Positions 20,671 through 64,000 of a stretch of 64,000 nt of DNA are shown in pieces (position 1 is the stretch's first letter; each line of letters opens with the position of its first letter). The notes under the pieces are model-generated. The model did no database searches. It had not been told where the DNA came from and was given only the letters and a program-made list of their open reading frames with translations. The stretch comes from Octopus vulgaris. Taxonomy: Eukaryota. The position numbers were made by a program, and so were the translations under genes. The DNA is taken from contig CATOCA020000002.1 in assembly GCA_951406725.2 (NCBI GenBank), positions 868,001 to 932,000 on the forward strand, written 5' to 3'.

Positions 20671-20839
20671 AGTGGGCTGTTTACACTCTTGGCATAGGCC
20701 ACAAGGTTATGGTTTCACTTGGTTTGCCAAGTCTTCTCAAGCACAGCATATTTCTAAGAAATGTTCTCAAGAAAAGTTTAGCAAACAACCAAAAAGTAAT
20801 CTAGCAAGACAAAAGAAAAGCAATAAAAATATGGATTAT

Positions 20840-20911
20840 TCACATACATGTTTCACTATTAACATATTACATAATTTTACTTACATAAATGTCCGTAGAT
20901 CTTCGGTGTGA
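20840..20911 (-). ncRNA. Minimal type-I hammerhead ribozyme, variant core CCGAAGA
   Basis: Minus strand: UCACA-CCGAAGA-UCUA...UAGU-GAAA-CAUG-UA-UGUGA. 5-bp stem I, palindromic stem III, and loop II similar to the 54244 family. Confidence 0.6.
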
Positions 20912-21006
20912 CCGTCCAGATAAATATAATATGCAGAACTATATACTAGGACATCAGCACATAATATCAAGGTCTCTTTCTTTTGTTGTCTTACCATTTT
21001 TGTCAA

Positions 21007-32470: not shown

Positions 32471-32546
32471 TACACAGAGAGAAAAAAAAACACAGAAAGA
32501 AGGAGAGAAAAAAAATGCGTGCAGTAACTAACGAATCAACATGGCG

Positions 32547-32592
<46 letters not shown>

Positions 32593-32615
32593 GTATTTAT
32601 ATATGTATATATATG

Positions 32616-32651
<36 letters not shown>

Positions 32652-32662
32652 TATGTATATAT

Positions 32663-34313: not shown

Positions 34314-34344
34314 ATATATGTATATATATATATATATGTATATG

Positions 34345-37300
34345 CCTAAGGCATCAGCCCTTCCACCAATACCCAAAAATGGAAGATAAAATTCCTGGAG
34401 GACTGGGTCGATGCCCATCCAAACCACATCCCTTTCTTCGTCCTCACTGAAACCCATCTTAGTAACCTTCACTTGGAAGCCGAGGTGAAAGTTAAAAATT
34501 TCAAAGCCATTCGTGCTGGCAGAAGAAAGGGTGAGACTGCCATTTATGTTCATGATTCATTCTCAACAGAAGCTATGAACATATTTTCCAATGGATACTG
34601 CAAAGCACTCGCTGTATTCAGTCAAACCAACAACTTAACAGTAGTTGGGCTCTACAGACCACCCCAAACGCCCCTACCATACTTCAAGGAATGCCTCAAC
34701 AACATAAAGTGTTTCATTCAGCAGTGTCAACCTGACAACATTTTAATGATGGGAGACTTCAACCTTCCCAGGGTTGACTGGTCTACAAACAGTCTGCCGC
34801 CAGGTTCTTCTCTCTCAACCCCTGACAGGGAGGCAGTGGAATCGCTTCTTGACTTCATGGATGATTTCTTCCTGTACCAACTGGTGCTCGAACCAACGAG
34901 ATGTCATAAAAACGTCTTAGACTTAATTTTCAGCAATCACACTGATACTATCCACAATATTGCAGTGGAGAAAACCCTACTCTCTGATCATGACATGGTT
35001 CTCTGTGATCTGAGATTTCACTGGCCAAAATGCAAAACAAATGTCATCCCTCCTGTTCATCCATTTGACACTATGGATTTCCACAATGCAAACTGGGAAG
35101 CGATCAATAATGATCTTGCACAAGTTGATTGGTCCTTCACGCACACATACACACCCACTAACATCAAAAAGTCCTGGCAGTCATTTGTAGACACCATTAC
35201 GAACATATGTGCAAAACACACCCCATTAAGATCTGCAAACAAATCTAAGTGTCGAATCCCTAGAAATAGAAAATCTCTCATCAGGAAAATTAAAAGAATT
35301 AACAAAAAAATCAACAAGCTGAAATACTGTCAACAGCAACACACCAACCTGACTGCCATCTCGTCGCTAGAGATTAAAAAACATAAACTCCAAAACAACA
35401 TGATGTCTATCATCAATAGTCAGCGAAGAGCTGAAGAGGCCTGGGCCATTGAGAAGTGTTCTTTTCATTTGCAAAAAAAAAACAGAGTCACTGGTTCTAC
35501 TGTTGGCCCTCTGATTGATGAAAATGGTACTCTTCAAGACAATGCCAAAACCACGGGAGAGATATTGCAGAAACAATATTGCTCTGTTTTCAGCAATCCT
35601 GATATGACTGATCTGGGCTGTATCAGTGATATTACTCCCCAATACACTTTATCGGACATAACCTTTGGCACTCCTGATGTCTTAGCAGCAATAAAGGAAA
35701 TGAAGCATAATTCAGCAGTAGGTCCCGATAGGTTCCCTGCTTGTGTCTTGAAGATGTGTCAAAACCAACTTGCACCCCCTCTAGCCAATCTGTGGCGGAA
35801 CTCACTGGATGCTGGATATATACCAGAAGACCTTCTATCCCAGTCTGTTTTCCCAGTTTTCAAAAAAGGAAACAAATCGCTTGCCGTGAATTACTGTCCA
35901 ATCTCACTCACCTCTCATATCATTAACCCTTTCGTTACCAAACCGCCCAAAGCCACCTGAAAAAAATTTTGGTTAATGTGACCAAACCCGCCCGAATTTA
36001 CCTATTCATATTTAAATGAGAATATCAGTGCAAATCTCTTTAGTACATTCGTGAAAACACGTGATTATGCTTTGTAAACAGTTCATCGACAGTTTTGTAC
36101 AACGATCGACGTGTAATTTTAATTCCCTGAATTTTGGGAGATTTTTTTCCACATTTTTTTCGGCATCGATTTTTCTTCAACTTTGAAAATGGATAGGAGT
36201 TTCATGTTATCAAGCATTGATTCCGAATTGGAAAATTTGTGAAACAAATACTGGGTACTGTTGTGGATTTAGTTTTTATACAGGAAACTAATGTTAGTCA
36301 ACATGGCTTAGGGTATGATGTGGTCTGGAAGTTATTGTTTGAAGCGATCAATGCGGAAACAAACTTACGCAGAACGTAAACAAACCCAAAATGGGGGTTC
36401 AAATTTCGGAAAATTTGTGAAGCAAATACTGGGTACTGCATGGAGTTAGTTTTTATACAGGGAAAATAATGTTAGTCAGCATGGCCTAGGGAACGATGTG
36501 GTCTGGAATTTATCACTTCCATACCATAACCAGGGTCATATATTATTTTTTGACCAATTTCTTTAGTTCGGTCAAACTTGCGGTGGATTCAAGTATTTCA
36601 CTTTATTCCACCTTTATGGTACACCTGTTGTGCATTAAATTCAACTGATGATATAGTGATGTGCACAATTCTTCTTTATCAAAATTTTGTTGCATACCCA
36701 TTTGAATATTAGCTGATGATTCATTTTCTATGGTGATGTTTAAACAAAATTTTAATATTTTTACCTTTTGCTCAATTTACCTGGATTTACCTGTAATTAA
36801 AGTCACTTTGAGACAAAAGTTATGCAATAGAATTGATTAAGAACCCTTTCTTTAATTATGTTCCAAATATCACATTAAAATGTTGATAAGTAAAAAAGTT
36901 ACAGTTATTTAATGAAACAAGCCTAGATTCATGATTATTTTAGAATTTAATTGAAACTCATGAGGGGTGTATTTTGGTCAGAAATATAGTAACGAAAGGG
37001 TTAAGGTATTTGAGAGAGTGCTGAGATCGCGTATGACTCACTTCCTTGAGAGTCATAATATGCTGAACTCCAACCAGCATGGATTCCGTAATGGAAGAGA
37101 TTGCCTGACGCAACTACTGCATCATTTTGATGACATTTTGAGAGCCTTGGGAGAGGGTTCCAACACTGATGTCATCTACCTTGATTTCAGCAAGGCCTTT
37201 GACAGGGTTGATCATAAGATCCTTCTGAGAAAGCTGTCCAATATTGGTGTCACTGGAAAGCTGCTGCAGTGGATCAAGTGCTTCCTGTCTAACAGAACCC

Positions 37301-38398
37301 AACATGTTGTAGTCGAAGGAGTCAAATCCAGCCCAGCCAAAATCAGCAGTGGTGTCCCACAAGGCACTGTGTTGGGCCCACTTCTCTTCATCATCTACAT
37401 AAATGATATTACTGACACCATCAAACACAGTAACATCAGAACCTTCGCTGATGATTCCAAGCTCCAGAAGGTCATCAGTGGCGTGGATGACTGAATAAGC
37501 CTTCAGTCAGACCTACTGGCTGTTGTCCAATGGGCGGAAAAGAACAACATGTTGCTAAACAAAGACAAATTCGAACTGATCCACTTTGGATGGGAGGATG
37601 CTCTGAAACTCCCATACTCCCTTCTGGAGAAATTCTCATGGTGTCCAACAACATCAGAGACTTGGGAGTAACAGTGGACAACAACATAAGCTGGGCTGCA
37701 CATATAAGCAGCAAAGTTGACATGGCTGCAGAATGTGTTCCTGGATTCTCAGAACCTTCCAATCGAGAGATTCCCACACTATTATCCTTCTCTTCTCCAC
37801 TTTTGCCCGACCCCACCTTGAATACTGCTGTCCACTGTGGTCTTCCTACACAAAACAAAATATGAGAATTGAAGCTCCCCAAAGGTCAATCACAAAAAAG
37901 ATAGATGGCATGTCAGACCTTGACTACTGGGGTAGACTAGAGAAGCTGAAACTGTATTCACTCCAATGACGCCGTGAACGCTACATTATCTGTATGATGT
38001 GGAAAATATTCCATCAGCACTGTCCGAATGATGTTGGCATCACCTTCAAAATACATCCAAGGCTTGGACCACGTGCCATCGGTCCACAACAAAAATCTAA
38101 ATCGCATCACATAACGACAATACGGCACAATTATTTCACCTCAAATGGACCCGCTCTCTTCAACATTACACCAGGACACGTCAAAACAGAAACTGACCAC
38201 ACAAAATTCAAGAAGTCTTTGGACAAATTCCTTCAAACAGTCCTTGACAAACCACCCACACCCGGATATGTCTCCGCAAACAATAACTCTCTGCTCGAAT
38301 GGGCCTCGGTGCCCAAATCCTGAATTGAAAGACTTCGCCAGGTGGTGCTATTACGTTAGACATGGCCTGGGCCAATACTGGCCAAAACCTTTCTAAGT
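34345..38398 (+). mobile_element. CR1-group LINE ORF2 (APE + RT), second subfamily, split by a piggyBac insertion
   Basis: LTETHL, GLYRPP, MGDFNLP, LDLIF and SDH (APE). ISLTSHII | KVFERVLR rejoin across the insertion. GVPQGTVLGP, FADD, LEYCCPLWS. Confidence 0.92.
35927..37000 (+). mobile_element. Internally deleted piggyBac-like transposon
   Basis: TTAA duplication at 35923-35926 and 37001-37004. TIR CCCTTTCGTTAC / GTAACGAAAGGG. Transposase remnants FYTG..HGLGYDVVW and PYHNQGHILFFD. Confidence 0.9.
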
Positions 38399-38429: not shown

Positions 38430-38639
38430 AATATTAAGGAATAAATCCAAACTTACAGGGAAAAATCAGATTTAGGATTGAATCCAATTTTATAGTAAAA
38501 TATTATATTATATTAAATTAGAGACAAAACCACTATTAGGCGAATCATACAATGAAAAACTTAAGCCAATACACAAGATTATTTAATTTATATTATTTAA
38601 ATATATAACAAAATTATTAAAAAAATATAATTAATATAA

Positions 38640-38703
38640 CACTACGATCGTTTCATGGCTGTTAATTTCTTTAAATTTTCGAGTTACAGTCATTCATCAG
38701 GTG
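38640..38703 (-). ncRNA. Minimal type-I hammerhead ribozyme (canonical core)
   Basis: CAC-CUGAUGA-AUGACUGU...ACAGCCAU-GAAA-CGAUCG-UA-GUG, within a TA-flanked element (about 38425-38795) whose 38514-38570 segment is inverted at 38738-38792. Confidence 0.8.
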
Positions 38704-38794
38704 GTTTAAATATTTATCTTGGCGAGGTTTAAACCTCTTGGCTTAAGTTTTTCATTGTATGATTTGCCTAATAGTGGTTTTGTCTCTAATTTAT

Positions 38795-38864
<70 letters not shown>

Positions 38865-39090: not shown

Positions 39091-39172
39091 TATATATATA
39101 TAAATATATATTTATATATATATAATAATGATAAATCTCAGAGCAAGTTATAAACAGTAGCAGCAACACATC

Positions 39173-39442
39173 GTGACTTATATTTGCGTTTGAATATGGC
39201 TAACCCCTAAGGGTGGATGCTACTGTAGTTTGTAGCCCCAAGAGGACGGGTCAATACCCTGAAACTCGAGTCCGTGTGTATCATAAGTTGAAGACGAGAA
39301 GGATGGCTTCCCTTTGCAAATACTGATAGGGCACAGAAAGTGTGTCTATAGCCAGCTGGAGGAGGTGTCCTCCTGGGGCTACAAACTACAGTAGCATCCA
39401 CCCTTAGGGGTTAGCCATATTCAAATGGCAAATATACGTCAC
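39173..39442 (+). mobile_element. Fold-back element (75-bp arms) with 5'-truncated hammerhead
   Basis: 39173-39247 is inverted at 39367-39442. The loop begins GGGU-CAAU-ACCC-U-GAAA-CUCGAG-UC-CGUG. Confidence 0.7.
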
Positions 39443-39800
39443 TATATATATATAAATTGAGATAACGGTTGTGAGTGCAACCCACCATGGGATAACATAT
39501 ATCCAATATACTGCCAGTAAAGCACCCAACAAAGTTAATACATAAATGTTAAGAATTGCAATGCAATTAATTCATTTATTGTATTATATGGGCAAAGGTA
39601 AAATATTTTACCACAAATTCATAATACAAAATAAGAAAATGAGGAATACACCTTAATCAATAATCAACTACCAGATAATACCCATTCACATAATTTATTA
39701 ACCAGCTACATATGAACAAACACAATAATACAGAACAAAACAATGATTAATATGATACAATAAGTACAATACGTATAAATAAATATAAATATAAACTAGA

Positions 39801-39925
39801 TCTTACAGCTGTTTCAGCCATGTAGATATGAGTATCTCATTATGCTCATATTAGCCAGGTGTGATAAGTTAATATGTGGTTATAAATGAGACACTTACAT
39901 ATATATCCCAAGGCCTCTTCAGAGA
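39801..39925 (-). ncRNA. Type-I hammerhead ribozyme with long loop II
   Basis: UCU-CUGAAGA-GGCC...GGCU-GAAA-CAGCUG-UA-AGA. Confidence 0.75.
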
Positions 39926-42459
39926 TTATAAAGTACAATCCAAATATGAATATAAGAGAAGGTACACCTATACAAGAATGAGTACATATACATAATATAT
40001 AATATACACATAGATATAAGTGTATATACACATGTACCTATATATATATAAGTATATACATAATACTATATAATAATATACATACATATAAGGTTACAGT
40101 TAGTCAAATCAATATATTAGAATATACAAACATACACATATCCACATGAAAATGTACATATACAAAGTCAAGAGTTCATTGTATTAAGTTACAAAATGCC
40201 ATTAATGGTATTATTATTATTATTACTATTATTATTATTATTATTATTAATAATAATAATACCAGTAAAAGAATATGTGCATCACGCCATTCACAATACA
40301 TATTAGATGGAAAATATCCCATAGAATACAGCAACAGCATAATATAGTGATTATAATAACATAATAATAATATAATACAATACATTATAGCTCAACCAAC
40401 ACATATAAAATGAAAAATATTGATTTACATCAGAAAAATCCAGAAGTGTACATGCGTATAAACGCATACAAATCAGATATTTATTAGCAGGTTTGGAAAT
40501 AATTTAAGATTGAAAGCTCAATACGATTGTCTTGCACATTTGAATTTCAGTTGTCTTAGTTACGGTTGGTTTATTAAGATACACTTACATACATAAACAT
40601 GTATATGCGCGCTTACACATGTACACATAGATAAACCAAAGTACTGAAAATACAAGCTTACATACACACAGACATGCTTACATACATAACTAGATACGTA
40701 TATATCCATATATGAATATATATATAAACAAATACGTATACCCAAAAGCAACCACGCACACATATATGTATATATATATACATACACATACATACTGTTA
40801 ACTAAAATAATATTAAGAATCATTAAAATTAAGATAATACTAAATGTTAATACAACGAAAGGGGTTGGAAGGGTAATTCGAAATGTACAAAAACGAGGGG
40901 CCTAAAAGGGTAGAAAAACGTAAGGGTTAATAAAAGGCAAAGGTTGGAAAATATTCAGATAAAATTTATAAGAGGGATATAAACTCAACACACATATTTA
41001 TCATAACTAGTGTAAAGAAGTATGTTATTTGCATAAGATACATAATGAAAAATTACACCGATTATACCGTAAAAAAACAGAAAACTACGAAAACGTCCAG
41101 ATATCAACACCTACAAGTATGAGCTTACTCAAACCACAATTCTGTACAAATCCCAACCCAGCATACCACACATCCATATACAAAACAAATATAAAGCTAC
41201 CAAATAAAAAACCGGAGTCATTTACCACCACAACCATGTACCCCCAAATACGAAACACAACCCATCAAAAATTACGTAATCTATATTTATCGGTGTATAC
41301 GTGCTTATTTTAATTTTAGGTATACACCGACAATAACATTTGTACAAAGACTCATACATATGTACTTTTATACCTAAAAACCTACACATAAATATACATA
41401 CAAGTAACAGATATACACCAATAAATCTAAATTTAATATATATATATACAGGTATACATACACTGACGTACCTAAATGTACCCTAAAAGAATAGACATAC
41501 GTATATATCCTCCTACATACAAATATACTGCATAAGAAAAATGAATACACATCCATATGTACACTCACAAACACACCATCAATAAATATGTATAGGTATG
41601 GGAAAACTGCACCAATATATATATGCACATATATATATACATATATACACCTGCATACACATATATACACAAACGCAAATTCACCCATAAAAGCATGAAT
41701 ATACATATAAACGTACGCAGACATACATACAGATAGAATTACAATATACATACAAAAATTATATATTATACACGTGTGGAGAACTACACCAAATTATATC
41801 CGCAAACATTTGTATACACATACATACACATGCACAACATCAATATATTTATTGATGTTGTGTATGTGCGTGTACATATGGATGTGTATTTATATTTTCT
41901 TATGGAGTATATTTGTATGTAGGCGGATATATACGTATGTCTATTCTTTTAGGGTACATTTAGGTACGTCAGTGTATGTATACCTGTATATATATATATT
42001 ATAAAATTTAGGTTTATAGGTGTATATCTGTTACTTATATGTATATTTATGTGTAGGTATTTGGGTATAAAAGTACATATGTATGAGTCTTTGTACAAAT
42101 GTTATTGTCGGTGTATACCTAAAATTAAAATAAACATGTATACACCGATAGATATAGATTACATAATTTTTGATGGGTTGTGTTTCGTGTTTGGGGGTAC
42201 ATGGTTGTGGTGGTAAATAACTCCGGTTTTTTATTTGGTAGCCTTATATTTGTTTTGTATATGGATGTGTGGTTTGCTAGGATAGGGTTTATACAGAATT
42301 GTGGTTTGAGCAAGCTCATACTTGTAGTTGTTGATATCTGGACGGTTTAGTAGTGTTTTGTTTTTTTACGGTATAATCGGTGTAATTTTTCATTATGTAT
42401 CTTCCGCAAATAACGCACTTTTTCTTTACCCTAGTTATTGTAAATGTGTGTGTTGAGTT

Positions 42460-42888
42460 TGTAGTGATGCTACTGTGTAAGGTTCAGCGCGCATGCGCAG
42501 AATGGGACTACTTCCGGGTGGCCACCGGAAGTCTTCCCCATGCGCATGTGCGGGAAACTGACCCCTAAGGCACAGTCCACTCACTCACTCTCTGGCCCCA
42601 ACAGCGCTCGTGAACAGACGTGCATTAGAAGTCTCTGAGAACTACGCATCGACTTAGCAGCGGACACATCGAACCACTTCGACCAGCCTACAAGAAGCAG
42701 TACAACAGATACGGCTGTCGGTCCCCCTCAGAAATAGGCACACCAGATCAACACCATCACGAGTAATAAAACAACATTTGCTGTCTTTCCCAGATAACCT
42801 GACTTCGTCTGTTATATTTAACTAAATTGAATGTGACGGGATCGGATCGGACACCCCTTCAGTGATACCGATTCCAGATCCTGTTACA
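42460..42888 (+). mobile_element. Solo LTR (429 bp, Gypsy-like 4-bp TSD)
   Basis: TGTAG...TTACA termini. AGTT duplicated at 42456-42459 and 42889-42892. The empty site is preserved in the other arm (about 40975-40990). AATAAA at about 42765. Confidence 0.85.
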
Positions 42889-43593
42889 AGTTTATATCCC
42901 TCTTGTAAACTCTATCTGAATATTTTCCAACCTTTGCCTAATATTAATCCTTACGTTTTCTACCCTTTTAGGCCCCTCTTTTTTGTACATTACGAATTAC
43001 CCTTCCAACCCTTTTTGATGTATTAACAATTAGTATTATCTTAATTTTAATGATTCTTAATATTATTTTAGTTAACAGTATATATATACATATATGTGTG
43101 CGTGGTTGCTTTTGGGTATATGTATTTGTTTATATATATGGATATATACGTATCTAGTTATGTATGTACGCATGTCTGTGTGTATGTAAGCTTGTATTTT
43201 CTGTGCTTAGGTTTATCTATGTGTGCATGTGTATGCACGCATATACATGTGTATGTATGTAAGTGTATCTTAACCAACCAACGGTAACTAAGACAATTGA
43301 AATTCAAATGTGCCAGCCAATCGTATTGAGCTTTCAATCTTAAATTATTTGCAAACCTGCTAATAAATATCAATCACCGTCCCAACTCTGATTTGTATGT
43401 ATGTATACGCATGCACACTTTCGGTTTTTTCTGTGATGTAAAGGAATATTTTTTCCTTATATATGTGTTTGTTGAGCTATAATGTATTGTATTATATTAT
43501 TATGTTATTATATTATGCTGTTGCTGTATTCTATGTGATATTTTCCATCTAATATGTATTGTGAATGGCGGAATGCACATATTCTTTTACTGG

Positions 43594-43624
<31 letters not shown>

Positions 43625-43893
43625 AATAATAGCCTTTTGTAGCTTAATACAATGAACTCTGAACTTTGTATATGTACACTTTCATGTGGATGTGTGTATG
43701 TATGTATATTATAATATATTGATTTGACTAACTGTAACCTTATATGTATGTATATTATTATGTATATACTTATATATATGTAGGTGCATGTGTATATACA
43801 CTTTTATGTATGTGTATATTATGTTATGTATATGTACTTATTCTTGTACATGTGTACCTTCTCTTATATTCATATTTGAATTGTACTTTATAA

Positions 43894-43983
43894 TCTCTGA
43901 AGAGGCCTTTATTACCTTAACACACCTGGCTAATATGAGCATAATGAGATACTCCTATCTACATGGCTGAAACAGCTGTAAGA
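43894..43983 (+). ncRNA. Type-I hammerhead ribozyme (partner of 39801)
   Basis: UCU-CUGAAGA-GGCC...GGCU-GAAA-CAGCUG-UA-AGA. Core is identical to the other arm while loop II differs in length. Confidence 0.75.
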
Positions 43984-44984
43984 TCTAGTTTATATTTATA
44001 TTTATCTATACGTATTGTACTTATGGTATCATATTAGTCATTGATGTGTACTGTTTTGTTCTATATTATTGTGTTTGATCTTGATGTTCCTATGTAGTTG
44101 GTTAATAAATTAAGTGAATGGGTATTATCTGGTAGTTGATGATTGATTAAAGTGTATTCCTCCATTTTCTTATTTTGAATTTGAGGTAAAACATTTTACC
44201 TTCGCCCATATAATATAATAAATGAATTAATTGCATTGCAATTCTTAGCATTTATGTATTAACTTTATTGGGTGCTTTACTGGCAGTATATTGGATATAT
44301 GTTATCCCATAGAGGGTTACACTCACAACGCCTATCTCACTTTATATATTTATATATATATTTTAGAAGAACCTTCAAGAGATCGATGTTATCAGAAGTG
44401 AATGTTGTCTGTAAAGCAAATATAAGTGAAAGTACGACAAGACACTGTATTTGAGAAGAATATTTTTGCTTTTGATGTAGTATATGCAACTAAAACATAC
44501 CTCGCGAAGAACCGAACACATATGCTAAAGCCACGTATTTGAAAACCTCTGAAAAGCTACTTCCTGATATTGAATTGCTCAAATATTAAATTCACAAGCT
44601 GATCAAAACTTGAAAACAATCCACAAAATATTGCATTTATGAACATTGGAACTCTATTATTTTTTTTTGTTTACAAAATGCAAGTAAAAAATACGGAAAT
44701 ATCGAAGGTCTGGCTTTTATATCTTTCTTTCTTCTAAAACAGAGTGAAGGAAAGTGTTCTCTCAACCAGAAGGTAAGAAAAAAATGTTATTTATTATTAT
44801 TGATAATCGACGATCTTACGGTTCTAAGATCACCAAATAATCTATAGATATAATCGCGATTATAGATTAAAATAAAAAATGCTATTTTTATTTTTCAACG
44901 CGCATCTGTTTGTATATAAATTCGTCCGTGATACAGTGTTTTCTTCTCTCAATCCTGACTATCTGTGTAACCTGCTTTACTCTT

Positions 44985-45810: not shown

Positions 45811-48800
45811 GCGAAAATGTCAAGGAACTGGTCTGCGAGGGAGTTGCAATTGTTCGTCCGTGCCTGGAAGATTGCCGAGGGCGACTTGCCAAAAATATCA
45901 TTGCAGCGGCGCTTAAGAGCAATGATTTCTCGAGGACCACCGCTCAGATAGAGCGAAAGAAACACGAATTCCTCCGTTTATACACTCTAATCAGACAACA
46001 CATGGACACTCTGGACATCATCCTAGGAGGTGACTGCACCAGTTAGGACCAATTGGATGGAGAAAACATCCAGGACCCAACAAAAGATACAACCGAGAAA
46101 CCTGCAACGAAGGGAAACAAGGGCACATGTCCACACAACTGAAGACCAAAGAGGTGCGATAGCCCCCCCCAAAAAAGGAAAGCACCCTAAAATCGACGGA
46201 AAACAAAAGGTAAAAGACAAGAAAACTAAAACAAACACTGTTCAGAAAAAGCAGAAGAACCCCAGCAAGAAACATCTGCAAATTCTACCTGAAGGGAGAC
46301 TGTTGGCATGGCGTCGAAGGTGCAAACTGTCGTTTTGCACATCAGAAGCCCTGCCAAAACCGCATGGACACAAGACAAAAATCCCTCCCTCGGGGAGAAC
46401 AAAAAGATAAAGAAAAATATAAAAGAAGGAAAAATGGCGCACTGACCACTCCTGAAAGACGATATGCGGATGTAGTGCGTGGTAGCCCAACAAATGCCAG
46501 TTTCACCAAGATGTGAGAAGGGCAGCAGTTGAACAACAATCTTTTTTGTACATGGCACAAAAAACATTCAGCAGCTGACCTGGCTACAAACACAAAGCTG
46601 GAACTACCACCACATAAGGCCACCACCAACAGATGCAGGATGGCCACCACGGACACCAACACCAACACACACACCACAAAAATATTTCTACTGAATGTAG
46701 GAGGGCTGCTGCGCGGAAACTGTAAAAGGAAAATCTCATTCCTGAGAGACCTTGTGACATGCAATCAAGCTATATGCATGGCACTCATAGAAACGCATCT
46801 TGGACCCGATATAGGGGATGCAGAAATACACATACCGCAATATGGTGTCATACACTCAGATAGAAAAGGGAGGAGCCCTGGTGGAGTTTCAATGTACATC
46901 CGAGATGACCTCACGCCCCAGGTCCTGATGTCATATTCAAACTCAGTGTGTGACACTCAAATTGTACACATAAGACAACTGAATATCATCATATGTACTA
47001 CATATCGCCCACCGGATGCCCCAAATCACTCGGGCATGTTTGAAGACTGCCTAACAAAAATAGGAGAAGTTCTCACTAACCTGGAACAACACAGTAGTGT
47101 ATTCTTCATGGGTGACTTTAAGTTCCCAGTGTGGAATGGCCGGGGGGTCAGATGCTCCCAGGGATGACACACCATCAGCAGGCACAGGCAGAGACCCTGC
47201 TCCATCTCACAAATGCCTCTTTCATGGAGCAAATAGTGCTGCAACCAACAAGGGCAGATAATATACTGGATCTCTGCTTCACAAACAATATGGATATTAT
47301 CCATAATGTTAAAGTGATGCCGACAATGATCTCGGATCACAACATAATAGAGCTGTCTATGTATGGACCAAAAGCCCCCGCAGACACACAGCCTATACGA
47401 AGCATCCACAATCTCTCCAACTTAAACTTTCATAAAGCAAATTGGAAGTTGATTGAGAAAAAGATCCTCAAACAGGATTGTCCTAAATGTCTCTCTACAC
47501 CGGACATTAACATGAAACACAAACACTTCATGTCCATAATACAAGCCATATGTGACAAATATGTCCCAGTGTGCAGGGCCAGCACACACAAAAACAAAAA
47601 CAGGATCCCTAGAGAAAGGAAGATTCTTATGAGATGACGGACAAGGATTGCGAACCGCCTGAGCAAGCACACCAAAAGTGGTGAGAAGTCTCGGCTCGAG
47701 AGAATGCTAATGGAAATTGAGAAAAGTCTGCATCAGTCTCATGAAAAGGAGAGAGCAGATAAAGAAGCTTGGGTAATAGAAAATATAAAGTCAAACCCTA
47801 AAGCTTTCTTTAAGTTTGCCAAAGAGACAGCCACAGTGCACCAGAGAATAGGACCTCTCTTCCAAAAAGATGGCTCTCTCACAGGAAATCCCACGAGGAT
47901 AAGTGAAATACTGAACGAACAGTTCCAAAGTGTGTTCACTACACCTCTAGGACACAGGCAAGTAAACAACCCAGAAGAATTCTTTGCCACTTTACCTGCA
48001 GCCAAAGAGGCAAAAATTGAGTACATCAACATTGAAGATGATGATATTACACTTGCCATAGATGAGATTGACACAAACTCAGCTGCTGGACCTGATGGAT
48101 TTCCAGCAATCCTTCTCAAATTGTGCAAACGAGCCCTTGCAAAACTGCTACAGCTTCTTTTTCAGAGCTTTCTTGCAAGTGGTAAGCTCCCAGTCAAATT
48201 GAAAGAGAGGGTAATTTGCCCTATCCATAAGGGAGGAAGCAGAGCAGATGCTAAAAATTATAGGCCTATCTCTCTGACCTCACACATCAGCAAAGTCATG
48301 GAACGAATAGTCCGTAAGAAACTAATCATGTTCCTTGAAGAAAATGACTTGCTGACTGACACCCAGCATGGATTTCGACCAGGTAGAAGCTGCCTAACAC
48401 AGCTCCTGCAACACTATGACTGGGTGTTAAAACAGCTACTAAATGGCTCAAATGTGGATGTGATATATCTCGACTTTGCAAAAGCCTTTGATAAAGTCGA
48501 CCAAGGTATGATTTGTCACAAACTGCGTGGTCTCGGCATAGGCGGAAAACTTGGGGAGTGGCTGCACAGCTTCCTAAAAGATAGAAGGCAGGCAGTCGTT
48601 ACCAATGGAGCCACCTCCAAGGAAACACAAATAACAAGCGGTGTTCCACAGGGCACTGTCTTGGGCCACTGCTGTTCATAGTGGCCCTTTCAGACATGCC
48701 TTCAGTTGCTAAGATGGCCACCCTTGCTAGCTATGCAGATGACACAAAAGTCTCCCACACAATACAAAACCCTGGAAATATTGCACATCTGCAACAGGAG

Positions 48801-49725
48801 TTGGATACAATATACAGGTGGGCTGAGGACAACAACATGCAGTTTAATGCAGGTAAGTTCCAGGCCCTGCGCTACCGGCACACAAAGGTAAACGACATGC
48901 AGACTGGATACACTGGCCCGGGAAGAATTGCAATCCCTGAGTCAAAATCAGTGCGTGACCTGGGCATTGACATGAGCAATGATGCATCTTTCCAAGTGCA
49001 TATTACTAATCTGGTGATAAAATGCTGACAGCTAGCTGGATGGATTCTCCAAACTTTCAGAACAAGAGAGAAGGAGACACTGATGGTCCTCTGGAAAACT
49101 TTCGTCCTCAGCTGCTTGGACTACTGCTCCCAACTATGGTCACCACACAATATAAAACTAACAGCAGAACTCGAAGCAATTCAAAGAAGCTACACAAAGA
49201 AGATCATCTCAATGCAACATGTCAGCTACTGGGAAAGACTGAAAGTATTAAACCGCTTCTCCTTAGAGCTAAGGGAGAGATATGCAGTGATATGCATCTG
49301 GAAAATCCTGGAGGGTCTTGTCCCAAACTTTGGCATTCAAAGTTACCCCAACTACAGAATGGGGTGCCACTGCATGGTGTCAAAGATTCCAACATCACCA
49401 TCAAAATACAGGGCCAAATACTGCAACAGCTTGGGTTTCAGAGGACCACAGCTCTTTAACATTCTCCCTAAATGCCTGAGAGACTTACATGGTGTGGATG
49501 TGGGTTTCTTTAAAACTAAACTGGAACTCTTCTTGTCGGGAATCCCAGATGAACCAACCTCACGACAGGAGATGCAGATGCGGGCAGCAGTATCGAACTC
49601 CCTTGTTGATCAAGTGCCACGTATCAGAGGTGGATTCACATATTAGTGTAGCTCATTCAGTGGTGGTGGCCCAGCATGGCCGCGGCCTTCAGGTTAAAAC
49701 ATTTTTTAGGATTTAAGCATTTAGA
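45810..49725 (+). mobile_element. Near full-length decayed CR1-group LINE (ORF1 remnant + APE + RT)
   Basis: ORF1-like CKFYLKGDCWHGVEGANCRFAH and RYADVVR. APE motifs LNVGGL, IETHL, TYRPP, MGDF, LDLCF, SDH. RT at 47704-49646 with frameshifts. 3' tail followed by (TA)n. Confidence 0.9.
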
Positions 49726-51309: not shown

Positions 51310-51620
51310 ATCATCATCATCATCATCATCGTTTAACGTCCGTTTTCTGTGCTAGCACGGGTTGGACAGTGTGACCGGGGTCTGGGAAGCCAGGGGACTG
51401 CACCAGGCTCCAGTCTGATCTGGCAGTGTTTCTACAGGTGGATGACCTTCCTAACACCAACCACTCTGTGAGTGTAGTGGGTGCTTTTTTGTGCCGCCGG
51501 CACAGGTGACAGGGGGGCTTGCAGCGGCAACGATCGGTTGGTGCTTTTTACGTGCCACTGTCACAGAAGCAAGTCAAGGTGGTGCTGCAATCGGCCACGT
51601 TCGGATGGTGTTTTTTACAT
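51310..51620 (-). mobile_element. RTE 3'-UTR-derived element
   Basis: (CAT)n then cgtttaacgtccg...ttcctaacaccaaccactc. Confidence 0.75.
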
Positions 51621-51703
51621 GCTGAAAGGAAAACCAAAGCACTTGAAAACAAGCCACGCAGGCAAAAGGAAAAAATGACGAAAATCATTCTATATTAGGT
51701 TAT

Positions 51704-51794
51704 CCATGGACGTACGTTTCGGAATTAAGTCAGTATAAAGCATAAATAATAAATAATTATACCTTACCTGACTATTTTTATCTCTTCAGCGTGG
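51704..51794 (-). ncRNA. Type-I hammerhead ribozyme
   Basis: CCACG-CUGAAGA-...AGUCAG...CUGACU...-GAAA-CGUACG-UC-CAUGG. The host element (about 51625-52240) ends in an inverted repeat, 52030-52103 vs 52167-52240. Confidence 0.7.
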
Positions 51795-52239
51795 GATTCC
51801 TCAATTATAAATAATTGAATATTAAATTTGAAGGCACTGGAAAATATCTTTTAACTTAACGGTATCAGAGAGATCGTATTCCGTGCTAGTGCCGCCAAAT
51901 TAAAAAAAATGAGTGAGAGTAAGTCATCCTCCCTCGCCCACCAGCGTGTTGTCAAAGTGAGATGCTACAGTTTTTTTCTCGGGGAAAAATACCATTATCA
52001 ATAATAACAACGGGTGAAATTAATTAATAAAGAAGTAATCAGTAAATTCACCAAGCAGGATTCGGCATGAAAAGGACCATTTCATGGTAAGTTTAAGTAA
52101 TACTAAGACTGCTATTTCTAAACTCCGGTATGTGAAGCAAATCGTAGCTGAACCCTAATTATATAGCATTACTTAAACTTACCATGAAATGGTCCTTTTC
52201 ATGCCGAATCCTACTTGGTGAAATTGCTGATTACTTCTT

Positions 52240-54087
<1,848 letters not shown>

Positions 54088-54090
<3 letters not shown>

Positions 54091-54770
54091 AATAGATATA
54101 AGAGAGTGGTAACTATGTGGCTCACTCTAGCACCAGTTAATCCAAAAGGTTTCAACCACGAAAATACATGTTTCCCATGAAAGTCAGTACGATTGTTAGC
54201 TCACACGGACAGGGCAAATAAAAAATAACAAAAATACAGATTATTTTGGGACAATTGTTTCGCTATTAATGAATTAAATGTAATTTTACTTACAAAAAAA
54301 ATCCATTTGTAGCTCGTCAGCCAAAACTATCTGGATGAAATCCACTCAATCACACGCCAGATTTTACCATAACGATAAATACGCGTGTGGTTCAATTGAT
54401 TACATCCGACGTTATAATTCAAATGCCCCAACTAACAACGCGCCAAACTTTCACGGAAAACAAATACAGCATTTAGAAATAAATGCAGCATAATTATAAT
54501 TAATTAATAAGGGTGAGAGAATTAGATACTAATTTAATAGTATATCTATTCAACACCAAGTGGCCTAGTGCTCCGAGAAACCTGGATTATTATAATATTT
54601 TATAACATATTATAATATTTTTACAAAATAAATATAAGAGAGTGGTCACTATGTGGCTCACTCTAGCACCAGTTAATCCAATAATAATCCAGGTTTCTCG
54701 GAGCACTAGGCCACTTGGTGTTGAATAGATATACTATTAAATTAGTATCTAATTCTCTCACCCTTATTAA
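54088..54770 (-). mobile_element. Retrozyme-like element: 536-bp monomer + about 50-bp tandem copy + start of inverted copy
   Basis: agagagtggt.actatgtggctcactctagcaccag at 54101 and 54637. 54682-54770 inverts about 54503-54592. Confidence 0.8.
54244..54326 (-). ncRNA. Type-I hammerhead ribozyme (canonical core, GUC site)
   Basis: UUUUGG-CUGACGA-GCUA...UAGC-GAAA-CAAUUG-UC-CCAAAA. Confidence 0.88.
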
Positions 54771-55155
54771 TCTCTCTCTATATAAACGGCAGTTTGTCTG
54801 TGCGTGTTTCTGTGTGTCTGTTTGCTTGTACCCTTACCCTGACCACGGCTTTCAACCGATTCTGATGAAACTTGACACACACATAGCCCAATGTCATAAT
54901 TCAAAACTAACGCAGCGAAAATTTTGAAAAGTTCCCCCAGTTCTGAAAAAAATCGATAAATTCGACATGGGGTCGAGAATGAGAAACCCAAACCACAGAC
55001 CGTCTAGGGGACGCAACTCCACCTGTTTTAACTCTCAAAAAAAATTTACCATCATTTTTTTTCCATTTTTTTGCTATTTTTTGGCTATAACTCTCTAAAA
55101 ATGCTTTATAGTTATTTCCCTTACAAACCTGAGCAACGCCGGGCGATACTGCTAG
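54771..55155 (+). mobile_element. Non-autonomous Helitron
   Basis: 5' TC, 3' hairpin cctgagcaacgccggg followed by CTAG, no TSD. Confidence 0.8.
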
Positions 55156-55371: not shown

Positions 55372-56676
55372 ATTTCGGGTATGGAAGCAAGGGTTGGAAT
55401 CAAAGGGCCTTAGAATAAATGTAGCAAAGACCAAAGTATTAGTAAGCAGCAAGAGGTACTCAACACACATCCCCTCGGGTAGGTGGCCCTGCTCAACCTG
55501 TAGGAAAGGTACAGGTAGAAACTCCATAAGATGCACCCAATGTAAGTTATGGACACATAAGAGGTGCAGCAACATTAAAGGGAAATTAACAGATAAGATA
55601 GCTTTCATGTGCGGCAGATGCACAGGGACAATAGACACAACAGACACTCAGAAAACAGATTCCATCACACTCCAGGGAGAGAAACTAGAAGTAGTTGATA
55701 GTTTCCGCTACCTGGGAGACCAAGTTAGTAGCGGAGGTGGATGCACAGAGAGTATCACCACTAGAATACGAATAGCCTGGGCAAAGTTCAGAAAGCTCCT
55801 ACCCCTACTGGCAACAAAAGGCCTCTCCCTCAGAGCAAAAGGTAGATTATATGATGCATGTGTGCGAACTGCCATGCTTCACGGTAATGAAACATGGGCT
55901 GTGACTGCAGAAGACATGCGTAGACTTGAAAGAAATGAAGCTAGCATGATCCGCTGGATGTGTAGTGTCAGTGTGCACGCAAAACAGAGTGTAAGTATCC
56001 TGAGAGAAATACTGGATATAAGAAGCATCAGATGTGGTGTGCAAGAGCGACGCTTGCGATGGTATGGTCATGTGCTGCGGATGGATGAAGAGAGATGTGT
56101 GAAGAAGTGCCACTCCCAAACAGTTGAAGGTATCAGGGGGAGAGGTAGACCCAGGAAGACATGGGATGAGGTGGTCAAGCATGACCTCAGAGCATTGGGC
56201 CTCACTGAGGCAATGGCGAAGGACCGAGATCTCTGGAGATATGCTGTGACTACAAAGACCCGGGCTGCTTTCTGCAGCAATTCCACATACCCCCTACCCA
56301 TTCTAAGTACCCCCCTACCCATTCTAAGTACCCCGGATCCCCAAAGTACCCCGGATCCCCAAAGTACCCTGGATCCCCAAAATACCCCAATCCCCAAAGT
56401 ACCCCGGACCTCGTTGCCCCCGTGCCGCTGACACGTTAAAATGCTCGAATCCGATCGTGACGATGCCGGACCCTCCGGCCCCTGTGCAGGTGGCACGTAA
56501 AAAGCACCCAATCCACTCACGGAGTGGTTGGCGTTAGGAAGGGCATCCAGCCGTAGAAACTCTGCCAGATTCAGACTGGAGCCTGGAGCGGCCCCTGGCT
56601 TCCCAGACCCGGTCAAACCGTCCAACCCGTGCTAGCGCGGAAAGCGGACGTTAAACGATGATGATGATGATGATGA
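55372..56676 (+). mobile_element. 5'-truncated RTE LINE (related to 23519)
   Basis: ORF 55394-56431 with the Cys-rich insert, FRYLG and GRPRKTW. 18-bp tandem repeat at 56285-56410. (ATG)n tail. (TA)n flanks. Confidence 0.92.
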
Positions 56677-56845
56677 TATATGTATATAAATATATAAATA
56701 TATATATGTATATAAATATATATATGTATATAAATATATATATGTATATAAATATATATATATGTATATAAATATATATATATATATATGTATATAAATA
56801 TATATATATATATATGTATATAAATATATATATATATGTATATAA

Positions 56846-56900
<55 letters not shown>

Positions 56901-56932
56901 AATATATATATATATATATATGTATATAAATA

Positions 56933-57375
56933 TTTAGTATCTAATTCTCTCACCCTTATTAATTAATTATAATTATGCTGCATTTATTTCTAAATGCTGT
57001 ATTTGTTTTCCGTGAAAGTTTGGCGCGCTGTTGGTTGGGGCATTTGAATTATAACGTCGGATGTAATCAATTGAACCACACGCGTATTTATCGTTATGGT
57101 AAAATCTGGCGTGTGATTGAGTGGATTTCATCCAGATAGTTTTGGCCGAAGAGCTACAAGTGGATTTTATTGTAAGTAAAATTACATTTAATTCATTAAT
57201 AGCGAAACAATTGTCCCAAAATAATCTGTATTTTCTTATTTTTTATTTGCCCTGTCCGTGTGAGCTAACAATCGTACTGACTTTCATGGGAAGCATGTAT
57301 TTTTTGTGGTTGAAACCTTTTGGATTAACTGGTGCTAGAGTGAGCCATATAGTGACCACTCTCTTATATTTATTT
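56933..57375 (+). mobile_element. Retrozyme-like monomer fragment (54088 family), no Helitron
   Basis: Slightly diverged reverse complement of about 54095-54535. Shows the empty Helitron site attaa^ttaattat. Confidence 0.8.
57140..57221 (+). ncRNA. Type-I hammerhead, core variant CCGAAGA
   Basis: UUUUGG-CCGAAGA-GCUA...UAGC-GAAA-CAAUUG-UC-CCAAAA. Confidence 0.75.
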
Positions 57376-60385
<3,010 letters not shown>

Positions 60386-60727: not shown

Positions 60728-61888
60728 AAATCAAAATCAATTCAAATCAAATCAAACCAAATCAAAATAGACGAACATCAATGGAATTTGTATCTTTGTG
60801 GTACCAGTACCGGTGGCACACAAGAAAACCATCCGAACGTGGCCGTAGCCAGTACCGCATCGACTGGCCTCTGTGATGTGGGCACATAACAAACACCATC
60901 CGATCGTGGCCGTCCGCCAGCCTCATCTGGCACCTGTGTCGGTGGCACATAAAAACACCAACCGAAGACCCGGCAAGACTAGTCAGGCCATAACCCATGG
61001 CCCCTACTTGGGACGTAGTCAGTCCACCTGTGCATACCTTCCTTCCTTCTCATGACACTTGTGAAGACCTGTGAAGACCTGTTGAGGCAAGTGAAAATCA
61101 AATCAAATCAAATCAAAATAGATGAACATCAATGGAATTTGTATCTTGTGGTACCAGTGCCGGTGGCACACAAGAAAACCATCCGAACGTGGCCGTAGCC
61201 AGTACCGTATCGACTGGCCTCCGTGCTGTGGGCACGCAACAAACACCATCCGATCGTGGCCATTCGCCAGCCTCATCTGGCACCTGTGTCGGTGGCACAT
61301 AAAAACACCATCTGAAGACCCGGCAAGACTAGTCAGGCCATAACCCGTGGCCCCTACCTGGGACGTAGTCAGTCCACCTGTGCATACCTTCCTTCTTGTG
61401 ACACTTGTGAAGACCTGTTGAGGCAAGTTAAAATCAAAATCAAATCAAATCAAAACAAATCAAAATAGATGAAGATCAATGGAATTTGTATCCTTGTGGT
61501 ACCAGTGCCGGTGGCACACAAGAAAATCATCCGAACGTGGCCGTAGCCAGTACCGCATAGACTGGCCTCCGTGCTTTGGGGACGTAACAAACACCATCCG
61601 ATCGTGGCCGTCCGCCAGCCTCATCTGGCACCTGTGTCGGTGGCACATAAAAACACCATCCGAGCGTGGCCGTCTGCCAGCCTCGTCTGGCACCTGTGTC
61701 GGTGGCACATAAAATCACCCACTACACTCTCGGAGTGGTTGGCGTTAGGAAGGGCATCCAGCTGTAGAAACACTGCCAGATCTGACTGGCCTGGTGCAGC
61801 CTTCGGGCTCCCCAGACCCCAGTTGAACCGTCCAACCCATGCTAGCATGGAAAACGGACGCTAAATGATGATGATGATGATGATGATG
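60728..61888 (+). mobile_element. RTE 3' UTR, tandemly triplicated, no ORF
   Basis: Unit (aaatc)n-aaatagatgaacatcaatggaatttgtatc... starts at about 60730, 61095 and 61430. The last unit runs to the (ATG)n tail. Confidence 0.85.
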
Positions 61889-61943
61889 TATATAAATATA
61901 TATATATATATATGTATATAAATATATATATATATGTATATAA

Positions 61944-61978
<35 letters not shown>

Positions 61979-62113
61979 TATGTATATAAATATATATATA
62001 TATATGTATATAAATATATATATATGTATATAAATATATATATATATGTATATAAATATATGTATATAATATATATATATATGTATATATAATTATATAT
62101 ATATATGTATATA

Positions 62114-62148
<35 letters not shown>

Positions 62149-62157
62149 TGTATATAA

Positions 62158-62254
<97 letters not shown>

Positions 62255-62255
62255 A

Positions 62256-62289
<34 letters not shown>

Positions 62290-62788
62290 GTATATAAATA
62301 TATATATATGTATATAAATATATATATATATGTATATAATATATATATATATGTATATAAATATATATCTATATGTATATAAATATATATATATATATGT
62401 ATATAAATATATATATATATATGTATATAAATATATATATATGTATATAAATATATATATATGTATATGTATATAAATATATATATATGTATATAAATAT
62501 ATATAAAAGTATATAAATATATATATATGTATATAAATATATATATATATATATATGTATATAAATATATATATATGTATATAAATATATATATATATAT
62601 ATGTATATAAATATATATATATATGTATATAAATAAATAAATATAAGAGAGTGGTAACTATGTGGCTCACTCTAGCACCAGTTAATCCAAAAGGTTTCAA
62701 CCACGAAAATACATGTTTCCCATGAAAGTCAGTACGATTGTTAGCTCACACGGACAGGGCAAATAAAAAATAACAAAAATACAGATTA

Positions 62789-62871
62789 TTTTGGGACAAT
62801 TGTTTCGCTATTAATGAATTAAATGTAATTTTACTTACAAAAAAAATCCATTTGTAGCTCGTCAGCCAAAA
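62789..62871 (-). ncRNA. Type-I hammerhead ribozyme
   Basis: Same as 54244-54326. Confidence 0.88.
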
Positions 62872-63315
62872 CTATCTGGATGAAATCCACTCAATCACAC
62901 GCCAGATTTTACCATAACGATAAATACGCGTGTGGTTCAATTGATTACATCCGACGTTATAATTCAAATGCCCCAACTAACAACGCGCCAAACTTTTACG
63001 GAAAACAAATACAGCATTTAGAAATAAATGCAGCATAATTATAATTAATTAATAAGGGTGAGAGAATTAGATACTAATTTAATAGTATATCTATTCAACA
63101 CCAAGTGGCCTAGTGCTCCGAGAAACCTGGATTATTATAATATTTTATAACATATTATAATATTTTTACAAAATAAATATAAGAGAGTGGTCACTATGTG
63201 GCTCACTCTAGCACCAGTTAATCCAATAATAATCCAGGTTTCTCGGAGCACTAGGCCACTTGGTGTTGAATAGATATACTATTAAATTAGTATCTAATTC
63301 TCTCACCCTTATTAA

Positions 63316-63701
63316 TCTCTCTCTATATAAACGGCAGTTTGTCTGTGCGTGTTTCTGTGTGTCTGTTTGCTTGTACCCTTACCCTGACCACGGCTTTCAA
63401 CCGATTCTGATGAAACTTGACACACACATAGCCCAATGTCATAATTCAAAACTAACGCAGCGAAAATTTTGAAAAGTTCCCCCAGTTCTGAAAAAAATCG
63501 ATAAATTCGACATGGGGTCGAGAATCAGAAACACGAACCACAAACTGTCTAGGGGACGCAACTCCACCTTTTTTTAAATCTCAAAAAAAAATTTACCATC
63601 ATTTTTTTCCATTTTTTTGCTATTTTTTGGCTATAACTCTCTAAAAATTCTTTATAGTTATTTCCCTTACAAACCTGAGCAACGCCGGGCGATACTGCTA
63701 G
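63316..63701 (+). mobile_element. Non-autonomous Helitron
   Basis: TC...hairpin-CTAG inserted precisely between A and T of attaa^ttaattat without TSD (empty site at about 56962). Confidence 0.88.
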
Positions 63702-63878
63702 TTAATTATAATTATGCTGCATTTATTTCTAAATGCTGTATTTGTTTTCTGTGAAAGTTTGGCGCGCTGTTAGTTGGGGCATTTGAATTATAACGTTGGA
63801 TGTAATCAATTGAACCACACGCGTATTTATCGTTATGGTAAAATCTGGCGTGTGATTGAGTGGATTTCATCCAGATAG

Positions 63879-63962
63879 TTTTGGCTGACGAGCTACAAAT
63901 GGATTTTTTTTTGTAAGTAAAATTACATTTAATTCATTAATAGCGAAACAATTGTCCCAAAA
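63879..63962 (+). ncRNA. Type-I hammerhead ribozyme
   Basis: UUUUGG-CUGACGA-GCUA...UAGC-GAAA-CAAUUG-UC-CCAAAA. Confidence 0.88.
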
Positions 63963-64000
63963 TAATCTGTATTTTTGTTATTTTTTATTTGCCCTGTCCG

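Follow-up and report, generated by a model that had tools for sequence, protein, structure and literature searches.

A 536-nucleotide hammerhead repeat of Octopus vulgaris with the anatomy of a non-autonomous Penelope-like element

Penelope-like elements (PLEs) are found in genomes as a full copy with a truncated copy upstream and an adjacent inverted, 5'-truncated copy, and they show a bias towards microsatellites (PMC8557442). The partial tandem with its adjacent inverted 5'-truncated copy is typical of the group (PMC2377424), and head-to-head inversion is likewise known in it (PMC3846280). The ribozymes of PLEs have a palindromic helix III, with a dimer as the active form (PMC4209133), while the role of the ribozyme and the reason why PLEs retain introns have been stated to be open (PMC8557442). 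Retrozymes have been described as PLE derivatives of 51-972 bp, and monomer copies are common in those families (10.64898/2026.07.22.740005). The idea that a circular RNA serves as the template is already present in PMC4209133 and PMC7229834. The subject of this report is a 536-nucleotide (nt) hammerhead-bearing repeat in a 64,000-nt stretch of Octopus vulgaris DNA (GenBank assembly GCA_951406725.2, contig CATOCA020000002.1, positions 868,001 to 932,000), referred to here as the window and numbered from its first letter. The repeat is protein-free and, with a probability of roughly 0.7, is a non-autonomous PLE (an animal retrozyme) that was likely copied by the reverse transcriptase (RT) and endonuclease of an autonomous PLE partner.

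The copy near 63 kb begins with a full 536-nt monomer (62635..63170, minus strand) that is non-coding and highly self-paired (fold z = -7.45). The ribozyme-sense strand of this direct arm is the minus strand, and the monomer 3' end lies at about 62635, with a few A/T bases uncertain. The monomer is followed by a partial tandem (63171..63226, minus strand) resembling the pseudo-long terminal repeat (pseudo-LTR) of PLEs, a 56-nt repeat of the monomer 3' end without the hammerhead; 62635-62690 and 63171-63226 are identical at 55 of 56 positions. The period of 536, which a preliminary description of this DNA had read from restarts at 62646/63182 and 54101/54637, proved to be exact, with matches at 44 of 45 positions, and it alone passed when offsets of 500-559 were tried. 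At 63226/63227 the sequence turns head-to-head into an inverted arm. The first part of this arm (63226..63315, plus strand) is the reverse complement of 63049-63138 at 90 of 90 positions, and the second part (63702..64000, plus strand) is 98% identical over 302 nt, carries an intact hammerhead and leaves the window at 64000. The spacer between the direct and inverted arms is 87 nt, and the composite amounts to 1.1 units with one same-strand ribozyme. An arrangement of about 50 bp of tandem followed by an inverted copy with a second hammerhead had been proposed for both loci; it holds at 63 kb, with 56 nt and a hammerhead at 63885(+), but the copy near 54 kb lacks the second hammerhead because it ends at the 386-nt insert described below. 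Outside the TA array, no frame longer than 79 aa occurs in 62630-64000. The 3' end of the element adjoins a (TA)n-based minisatellite (61879..62634, no strand), the likely priming target, whose last ~19 TA units (~400 nt) have the same order as those of the array before the 54-kb copy. The TA arrays at 52232-54100, 57365-58358 and 61879-62645 are compound, with a recurring unit of ~20-26 nt that ends in G, rather than pure (TA)n.

A descriptor for type I hammerheads matched four places on the two strands of the window, with cores CUGACGA at 62865(-), 54320(-) and 63885(+) and CCGAAGA at 57146(+), in agreement with the four ribozymes and three perfect cores counted earlier. The strict core occurs three times in the window; of 20 first-order Markov resamples, 19 contained none and one contained a single match. 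The motif of the direct arm (62788..62872, minus strand), recognized by descriptor and fold, has a helix I of 7 bp, the CUGACGA box at 62865-62859, the GAAA box at 62806-62803 and an extended helix II, with 52 nt separating the core boxes. The predicted cut falls after C62795, and this position and 54250 in the second copy agree with those named in the preliminary description; in the inverted arm the cut (core 63885) is predicted after 63956. Helix III and its loop are self-complementary (ACAAUUGU), and the fold of the hammerhead region has a z of -5.4. A dimer is likely the active form of the ribozyme, since the predicted active monomer fold (-21.9 kcal/mol) lies above the minimum fold (-27.5 kcal/mol). 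Rfam gave no match in the window at the gathering threshold (lower thresholds were not searched). The minus-strand ribozymes of the window are 8545 nt apart, and no same-strand pair lies one unit apart.

Comparison with described systems places the unit between PLEs and retrozymes. It resembles PLEs with pseudo-LTRs (Penelope/Poseidon and Neptune, including Penelope of D. virilis and PAc of Anolis) in its partial tandem and head-to-head inverted 5'-truncated copy (PMC8557442, PMC2377424, PMC3846280, PMC11167929). Further similarities to PLEs are the AT-rich or (TA)n target with a preferred 3' end, the hammerhead motif near the 3' end, a 3' end past the cut, a helix II containing an ATG, and sequence signals of the intron type close to the ribozyme. 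The layout is not novel, being already typical of PLEs (PMC8557442, PMC2377424), and would not surprise a specialist. Unlike PLEs, the octopus unit has no RT or GIY-YIG frame and measures 536 nt in all; it is not an autonomous PLE. The distance from the 3' end to the cut site is 160 nt, compared with ~85-92 nt in PAc as calculated from the positions in PMC11167929. With the type I hammerheads of PLEs that are minimal or have a palindromic helix III, the octopus motif shares a short self-complementary helix III favouring dimers and a long helix II (PMC4209133). Like the non-LTR retrozymes of animals (coral, mussel and axolotl, as well as Xenopus), the unit is non-coding, low in GC, self-paired and arranged head-to-tail, and has a type I hammerhead (PMC7229834). 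Its length is within the range of 51-972 bp (10.64898/2026.07.22.740005) and above the units of 150-450 bp in PMC7229834. It is unlike retrozymes in the 52 nt between its core boxes, which depart from the canonical helix II of 4 bp with a short loop. [quoted passage not shown] Non-autonomous Chlamys elements such as MRC1 are also non-coding PLE derivatives with pseudo-LTRs and head-to-tail insertions, but they are algal, mostly lack canonical hammerheads and have known autonomous partners (PMC8557442). Among the literature matches listed, none deals with a short, abundant hammerhead element of this sort in Octopus, and a 2026 repeat annotation of O. vulgaris does not use the word 'ribozyme' (PMC13282606).

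The family extends well beyond the window. At least half of the sampled words are contained in 20 of 24 listed sequencing runs (10 studies, 4 organism labels), none of the 24 being on record as RNA. Four of the runs, each in the form of contigs, were aligned on 62630-63250, namely X2, guessed to be DNA, and X9, X14 and X10, guessed to be RNA and belonging to three studies. X2 was read to ~80%, and 32 of its 2822 pieces are listed individually. In X2, 2664 contigs aligned, 108 of them only partly, and the fraction continuing into unlike sequence is 0. The summed depth of this run rises to 1.5 million, a figure that is not a copy number, and the family is very large and abundant because single listed contigs reach depths of 19-404. 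Records 23 and 24 of X2 span the head-to-tail join at 63170/63171 with at least 31 letters on each side, and the summed depth is 712,554 and 309,799 in the bins flanking the join and 83,121 to 1,515,038 in the body. Head-to-tail joining thus characterizes the family. That the join is spanned and that no contig continues into unlike sequence argues that most copies are not the ends of long coding elements, although a rare or diverged partner is conceivable.

Copies also share a 3' end, which is common to the composite, to an independent copy ending at 57375 and to both arms of X9 record 25. Circular permutation at the GUC site, which the preliminary description had anticipated, is not seen; the copies instead end alike ~160 nt downstream of the cut. 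X9 record 25 runs over 62635-62754, turns at 62708 and returns to 62635 with a spacer of 45 nt. A joint in X2 (62919/63083) is an inversion with a spacer of 163 nt, and in an X9 contig the turn is at 63112, the arm measures 11 nt and the spacer ~0 nt, and TA follows (judged by eye). Another X9 contig stops at 63226 (equivalent to 62690) and then enters TA, at the same place as the turn of the 63-kb copy; this position is perhaps a preferred pause. The bin with the inversion junction of the 63-kb locus (63239-63250) has no cover in any of the four runs, and as contigs drop rare forms this is not counted as polymorphism. A search with a 21-nt motif gave no viral match and two metagenome matches, which were set aside as chance because both were confined to the 21 letters.

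These observations can be accommodated by the following course of events. A head-to-tail RNA would have been produced elsewhere, from a tandem or partial-tandem master, and would have served as template in linear or circular form, the linear form being somewhat favoured. The partner would have nicked (TA)n and started reverse transcription ~160 nt 3' of the hammerhead cut, at the 3' end that the copies share. Reverse transcription would then have covered one unit and 56 nt, which is the product present at 63 kb. If the new cDNA 3' end folded back over 87 nt and copied itself, it would have given a head-to-head inverted arm of the observed geometry. Point changes, the insertion of a Helitron-like element into the inverted arm and the copying of the left part to a place 8.5 kb away at the DNA level would have come later, in an order indicated by shared characters, the last step likely through ectopic conversion between the TA array and another Helitron copy. 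In vitro, the PLE of Anolis initiates internally, downstream of the ribozyme, on AT-rich DNA; ribozyme cleavage is unneeded, and uncut RNA is the main template (PMC11167929).

Short fold-backs are frequent in the window. Nine inverted structures have spacers of at most 15-305 nt (as measured with a 14-bp seed), and four of the nine are without a recognized hammerhead. A second hammerhead-like family at 26845-27842 has a period of 564, a partial tandem of ~184 nt, an inversion at 27591 with a spacer of 38 nt, and TA arrays on both sides; its core, at 27080(-), has a damaged cut site. The same layout in this second family supports recurrent fold-back. Inversions in PLEs have been read as the result of self-priming, but with the priming placed on antisense RNA (PMC3846280), and the octopus data fit self-priming on cDNA and on antisense RNA equally. 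Twin priming is conceivable as the source of the inversion, as the far end of the 63-kb arm lies outside the window, but it is ranked below fold-back in view of the small spacers and of the one inverted arm that comes back to the 3' end.

The 386-nt insert in the inverted arm (63316..63701, plus strand) is a non-autonomous Helitron-like element with 5' TC, 3' CTAG, an A/T insertion site and no target duplication, both of its flanks matching the other arm. The hallmarks of Helitrons are 5' TC, 3' CTAG, insertion between A and T and lack of target duplication (PMC4588551). In termini, site and lack of duplication the insert is like non-autonomous Helitrons, but a 3' hairpin, which in Helitrons has 16-20 bp and stands 10-15 bp from the 3' end (PMC4588551), is only weakly predicted for it, at -2.0 and -2.8 kcal/mol for stretches that end 2-3 nt before the true end. 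The insert interrupts the inverted arm and its flanks are clean, so it is younger than the inversion.

The composite near 54 kb (54090..55155, minus strand) is a duplicate of 62635-63701 followed by a TA array. It consists of a monomer (54090-54625, core 54320), a partial tandem (54626-54681), an inverted arm (54681-54770) and the insert (54771-55155), and it ends at the insert's CTAG. What the two composites have in common (their inversion junction, the variant at 62656, the Helitron-like insert and the succession of odd TA units upstream) shows that they are not independent insertions. Between them, the first 894 nt hold 2 differences and the last 176 nt hold 11 (p ~1e-7). The 54-kb composite was copied from the 63-kb locus at the DNA level, with a switch half-way to another Helitron-like copy. 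By our own estimate its origin by ectopic conversion is much to be preferred over mis-assembly, which would require the assembly to have entered the 63-kb locus through the TA array and left it through the Helitron-like repeat. That the duplicated stretch is bounded by repeats at both ends and that identity falls abruptly within the insert would suit such a mis-join, which is nevertheless improbable, as the copies differ by 2 substitutions in the element and by several TA-unit lengths, as a real and slightly aged copy would; the same differences also fit two haplotypes.

The independent copy (56934..57375, plus strand) is 5'-truncated and 96.6% identical, has the same 3' end and the core CCGAAGA (57146), and lies between TA arrays. 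The four ribozymes of the window derive from two independent insertions, one of which was duplicated as DNA, so that their number is not the sign of activity for which it had been taken. The arms of the 63-kb copy differ by 4 substitutions in 388 nt, two of which are CpG transitions, and by the length of one A-run. With the calibration available for O. vulgaris repeats, in which 0.09 corresponds to 25 million years (PMC13282606), this suggests an age of 1.4 million years (range 0.4-3.7) for the 63-kb insertion if the arms were identical at birth. The arm divergence of ~1% falls within the 2% cut-off for 'recently active' in the same source, but the recent activity that the preliminary description proposed holds only on an evolutionary scale, the locus having since gained the Helitron-like insert and been duplicated. 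The 63-kb locus is likely a dead end, because none of its ribozymes has a same-strand partner one unit away and because, in an RNA reading through the locus, the ribozyme would be paired with its inverted copy.

Several points weigh against copying of the unit by PLE enzymes with fold-back. Pfam applied to 20 of the 67 long frames of the window found no GIY-YIG domain, and the link to PLE enzymes is one of anatomy. The ribozyme is known as a motif and a fold, with the active monomer fold 5.6 kcal/mol above the minimum, and eight of nine Xenopus dimers were left uncleaved in vitro (10.64898/2026.07.22.740005). Fold-back accounts for the four arm substitutions and the A-run difference only as later mutation. 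Finally, the 3' end is not strictly single, since left ends joined to TA also cluster at 63040-63052 in X9, X10 and X14, and one such end is at 63160, 11 nt past the usual end; no 3' tail of 30-40 bp could be distinguished. The ends at 63040-63052 may reflect a second start site, a sister family opened elsewhere in the unit, or the ends of inverted arms. A diverged relative (~88% over 67 nt) joins TA at ~63050 instead of 62635, with loose ends at 63040-63052 and 63116 in X9, X10 and X14.

The strongest alternative concerns the template. In the preliminary description, reverse transcription went more than once round a circular or multimeric RNA and then switched template. A copy longer than the unit, made from head-to-tail RNA and followed by a strand switch, is still the likeliest course. 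That hammerheads cut multimers to 536-nt monomers, which were ligated at the GUC site and circled by RT more than once, is unlikely, although it has points in its favour. The 536-nt unit folds as a circle far better than shuffled sequences in the sense strand (z -8.7; antisense z -3.6), and the retrozymes of coral, mussel and axolotl accumulate as circles (PMC7229834). In addition, contigs of X10 and X14 span the cut site, and those of X14 cover the unit save ~5 positions and lack several common X2 variants (62705, 62738 and 62933), as RNA from few loci would. On the other hand, a linear partial-tandem transcript yields the same DNA product by read-through, and uncut RNA was used by the Anolis PLE in vitro (PMC11167929). 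No go-back joint is listed in any of the four runs, which is weak evidence as the contigs are short, and none of the listed contigs of the RNA-guess runs reaches 31 letters to each side of the head-to-tail join, those of X14 reaching 27 and those of X9 reaching 17. A 536-nt circle requires two same-strand ribozymes one unit apart, and therefore neither composite could release one.

Less likely still is an origin from a long coding PLE, of which the copies would be the 5'-truncated ends; template jumps, or loss of the coding frame from a few of the copies, would then have produced the 536-nt period. The fixed 3' end past the ribozyme, the ATG of helix II and the donor motif described below do resemble the pseudo-LTR of a coding PLE, and rare autonomous copies would be invisible in depth-weighted contigs, 92 loose ends of which were left outside the listing. 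Such an origin is opposed by the depth of X2, which stays high through the join, by the two contigs that span it and the lack of any continuation into unlike sequence, and by the absence of a long frame in or beside any copy in the window. An origin of tandem and inversion at the DNA level, through unequal crossover, through repair of breaks in the fragile TA arrays or through rolling-circle copying by a Helitron, with the ribozyme as a relic, is very improbable. In its favour, the 54-kb duplicate is itself DNA-level and ends exactly at the insert's CTAG, satellite-type growth has been proposed for retrozymes (10.64898/2026.07.22.740005) and palindromes without a recognized hammerhead occur in the window (3401-4183, 8168-8510 and 1023-1335). 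Against it, the insert, with its clean flanks inside the inverted arm, came after the inversion, and the core is intact in three of four copies; separate insertions and the second family also repeat the pattern of a common 3' end, 5' truncation of varying extent and short head-to-head fold-backs.

The alignments also carry a signature resembling adenosine-to-inosine (A-to-I) editing. Thirty-eight differences, each reaching at least 5% in some run, were tabulated, and those below 0.5% in X2 were classed as RNA-only, a threshold set after the table was seen. This class comprises 14 of the 38, of which 12 are T>C and 2 are A>G on the plus strand, whereas changes of these types make up 9 of the remaining 24 (Fisher p 1e-4). 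The strand bias of the RNA-only changes holds against base content (p 0.001), and T>C on the plus strand corresponds to A>G on the ribozyme strand. Of the 12 RNA-only T>C sites, 11 form a cluster of likely A-to-I sites at 62695..62791 (minus strand). Three of them lie in the 3' strand of helix I (62789-62791), and two of these three come from a single X10 contig. Seven sites are common to X9 and X10. The 5' neighbour is A or U at 10 of 11 edited positions, compared with 7 of 14 other A's (p 0.04). An A or U 5' of the site agrees with the neighbour preference of ADAR. A bias of ADAR against 5' G is described in PMC9638939. A-to-I editing of the family's RNA on the ribozyme strand is likely, and the signature would imply that this strand is transcribed and enters a double-stranded state, so that the family is itself likely transcribed. 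Counting against this, X14 shows none of the 14 RNA-only changes; all four runs are contigs and none is on record as RNA, X2 and X9 are from different individuals and X10 carries another organism label, so that alleles or a rare subfamily could mimic editing. Read-through of a perfect palindrome is by itself a poor explanation of the editing: with 231 A and 169 T in the plus strand it predicts at least as many A>G as T>C changes, whereas 2 and 12 were seen. Editing of retrozymes has been raised as a mere possibility in PMC7229834, and no title on editing of such ribozymes was found among the matches listed.

A GTAAGT 5' splice-donor motif (62833..62838, minus strand) lies within helix II and begins 27 nt past the first base of CUGACGA. 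There is an ATG at 62851-62849, and the nearest acceptor-like AG on the minus strand is at 62746-62745. The donor recurs in other lineages, with GTAAG offset from the first base of the CUGANGA-type box by 27 in the 536-nt family, 22 in a decayed older relative (box at 20906), 22 at 51789 and 24 at 39922; the families at 51789 and 39922 look unrelated to the 536-nt family. GTAAG is absent from helix II in the families at 27080 and 38700 and in the shorter second copy of the 39922 family at 43897. For five lineages chosen by eye from the core list, the presence of the donor in three has a chance of ~0.001 anywhere in the loop and of 0.0002 for a 6-nt window chosen afterwards. Common descent could explain the shared donor and would still mean conservation. 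The core at 51789 has the consensus CAG/GTAAG (cut between) in helix II. The decayed relative (20800..20915, minus strand; 73% over 89 nt) retains GTAAGT in helix II together with a pyrimidine-tract acceptor, TTGCTAG (G at 20801), where the 536-nt family has CTGTCCG at the aligned position and a weaker GTGAG 6 nt further.

One contig of X10, 402 nt long and of depth 7, matches the element from 62925 down to 62840; beyond this point its sequence is unrelated and has no match in the window (16-letter motif, up to 2 mismatches). The donor would be cut at 62839/62838, and the offset of 1 nt from the break falls in an A-run of variable length among copies. The contig suggests splicing through the middle of the ribozyme; a genomic break is also possible. 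No GT-AG skip within the unit is listed in the four runs. Since the donor is inside helix II, a spliced RNA would lack both the GAAA box and the cut site. In D. virilis the 3' end of an intron abuts helix I, and spliced and unspliced RNA can both form the ribozyme, whereas the octopus donor sits inside helix II (PMC4209133). Among the literature matches listed for a donor inside helix II, only this helix I-abutting intron is described. A speculative proposal is that the helix II donor makes splicing and self-cleavage mutually exclusive in octopus Penelope-type ribozymes. Spliced RNA would be the message, and unspliced RNA would keep the ribozyme, be cut or circularized and become the template; A-to-I editing of helix I would act as a second off-switch, run by the host. 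The 536-nt family would then be an abundant parasite that kept the donor, lost a proper acceptor and donates its splice site to host transcripts. This proposal, based on a count of motifs and on a single contig, is doubtful.

Other elements of the window include a head-to-head inverted repeat of 4.9 kb (39443-44354) with arms 84-93% identical and hammerhead-like cores at 39922(-) and 43897(+). It was considered as the autonomous partner and rejected, its longest frame being 139 aa and of low complexity; it represents the same kind of non-coding element in an older and much longer form. Decayed hammerhead-like cores at 51789(-) (in 51620-52243) and 38700(-) (in 38509-38798) lie beside or inside short palindromes near TA tracts. 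Long palindromes with short spacers and no recognized hammerhead are present at 1023-1335, 3401-4183, 8168-8510 and 39170-39445. Fragments of RT and endonuclease of the long interspersed element (LINE) type lie between TA arrays at 18146-25451, 30456-37494, 47638-49686 and 55373-60366, and Pfam RVT_1 was found in 6 of the 20 frames scanned. The host frames are a BTB zinc-finger frame of 751 aa at 5261-7513(+), whose best match among 50, a protein of Octopus bimaculoides, is 98% identical, and a DUF1075 frame at 231-674(-). An unmasked self-BLAST of the window was dominated by TA arrays, and a promoter scan, with a bacterial model irrelevant to the host, gave 7 hits in the window against 7.0 expected by chance.

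The value of the family lies in its being a short, young and very abundant hammerhead element in Octopus. The donor, the ribozyme and the likely editing sites fall within 160 nt of the 536-nt unit, which makes it a test object for competition among splicing, editing and cleavage. If true, the mutual exclusion of splicing and cleavage would explain the retention of introns in PLEs.

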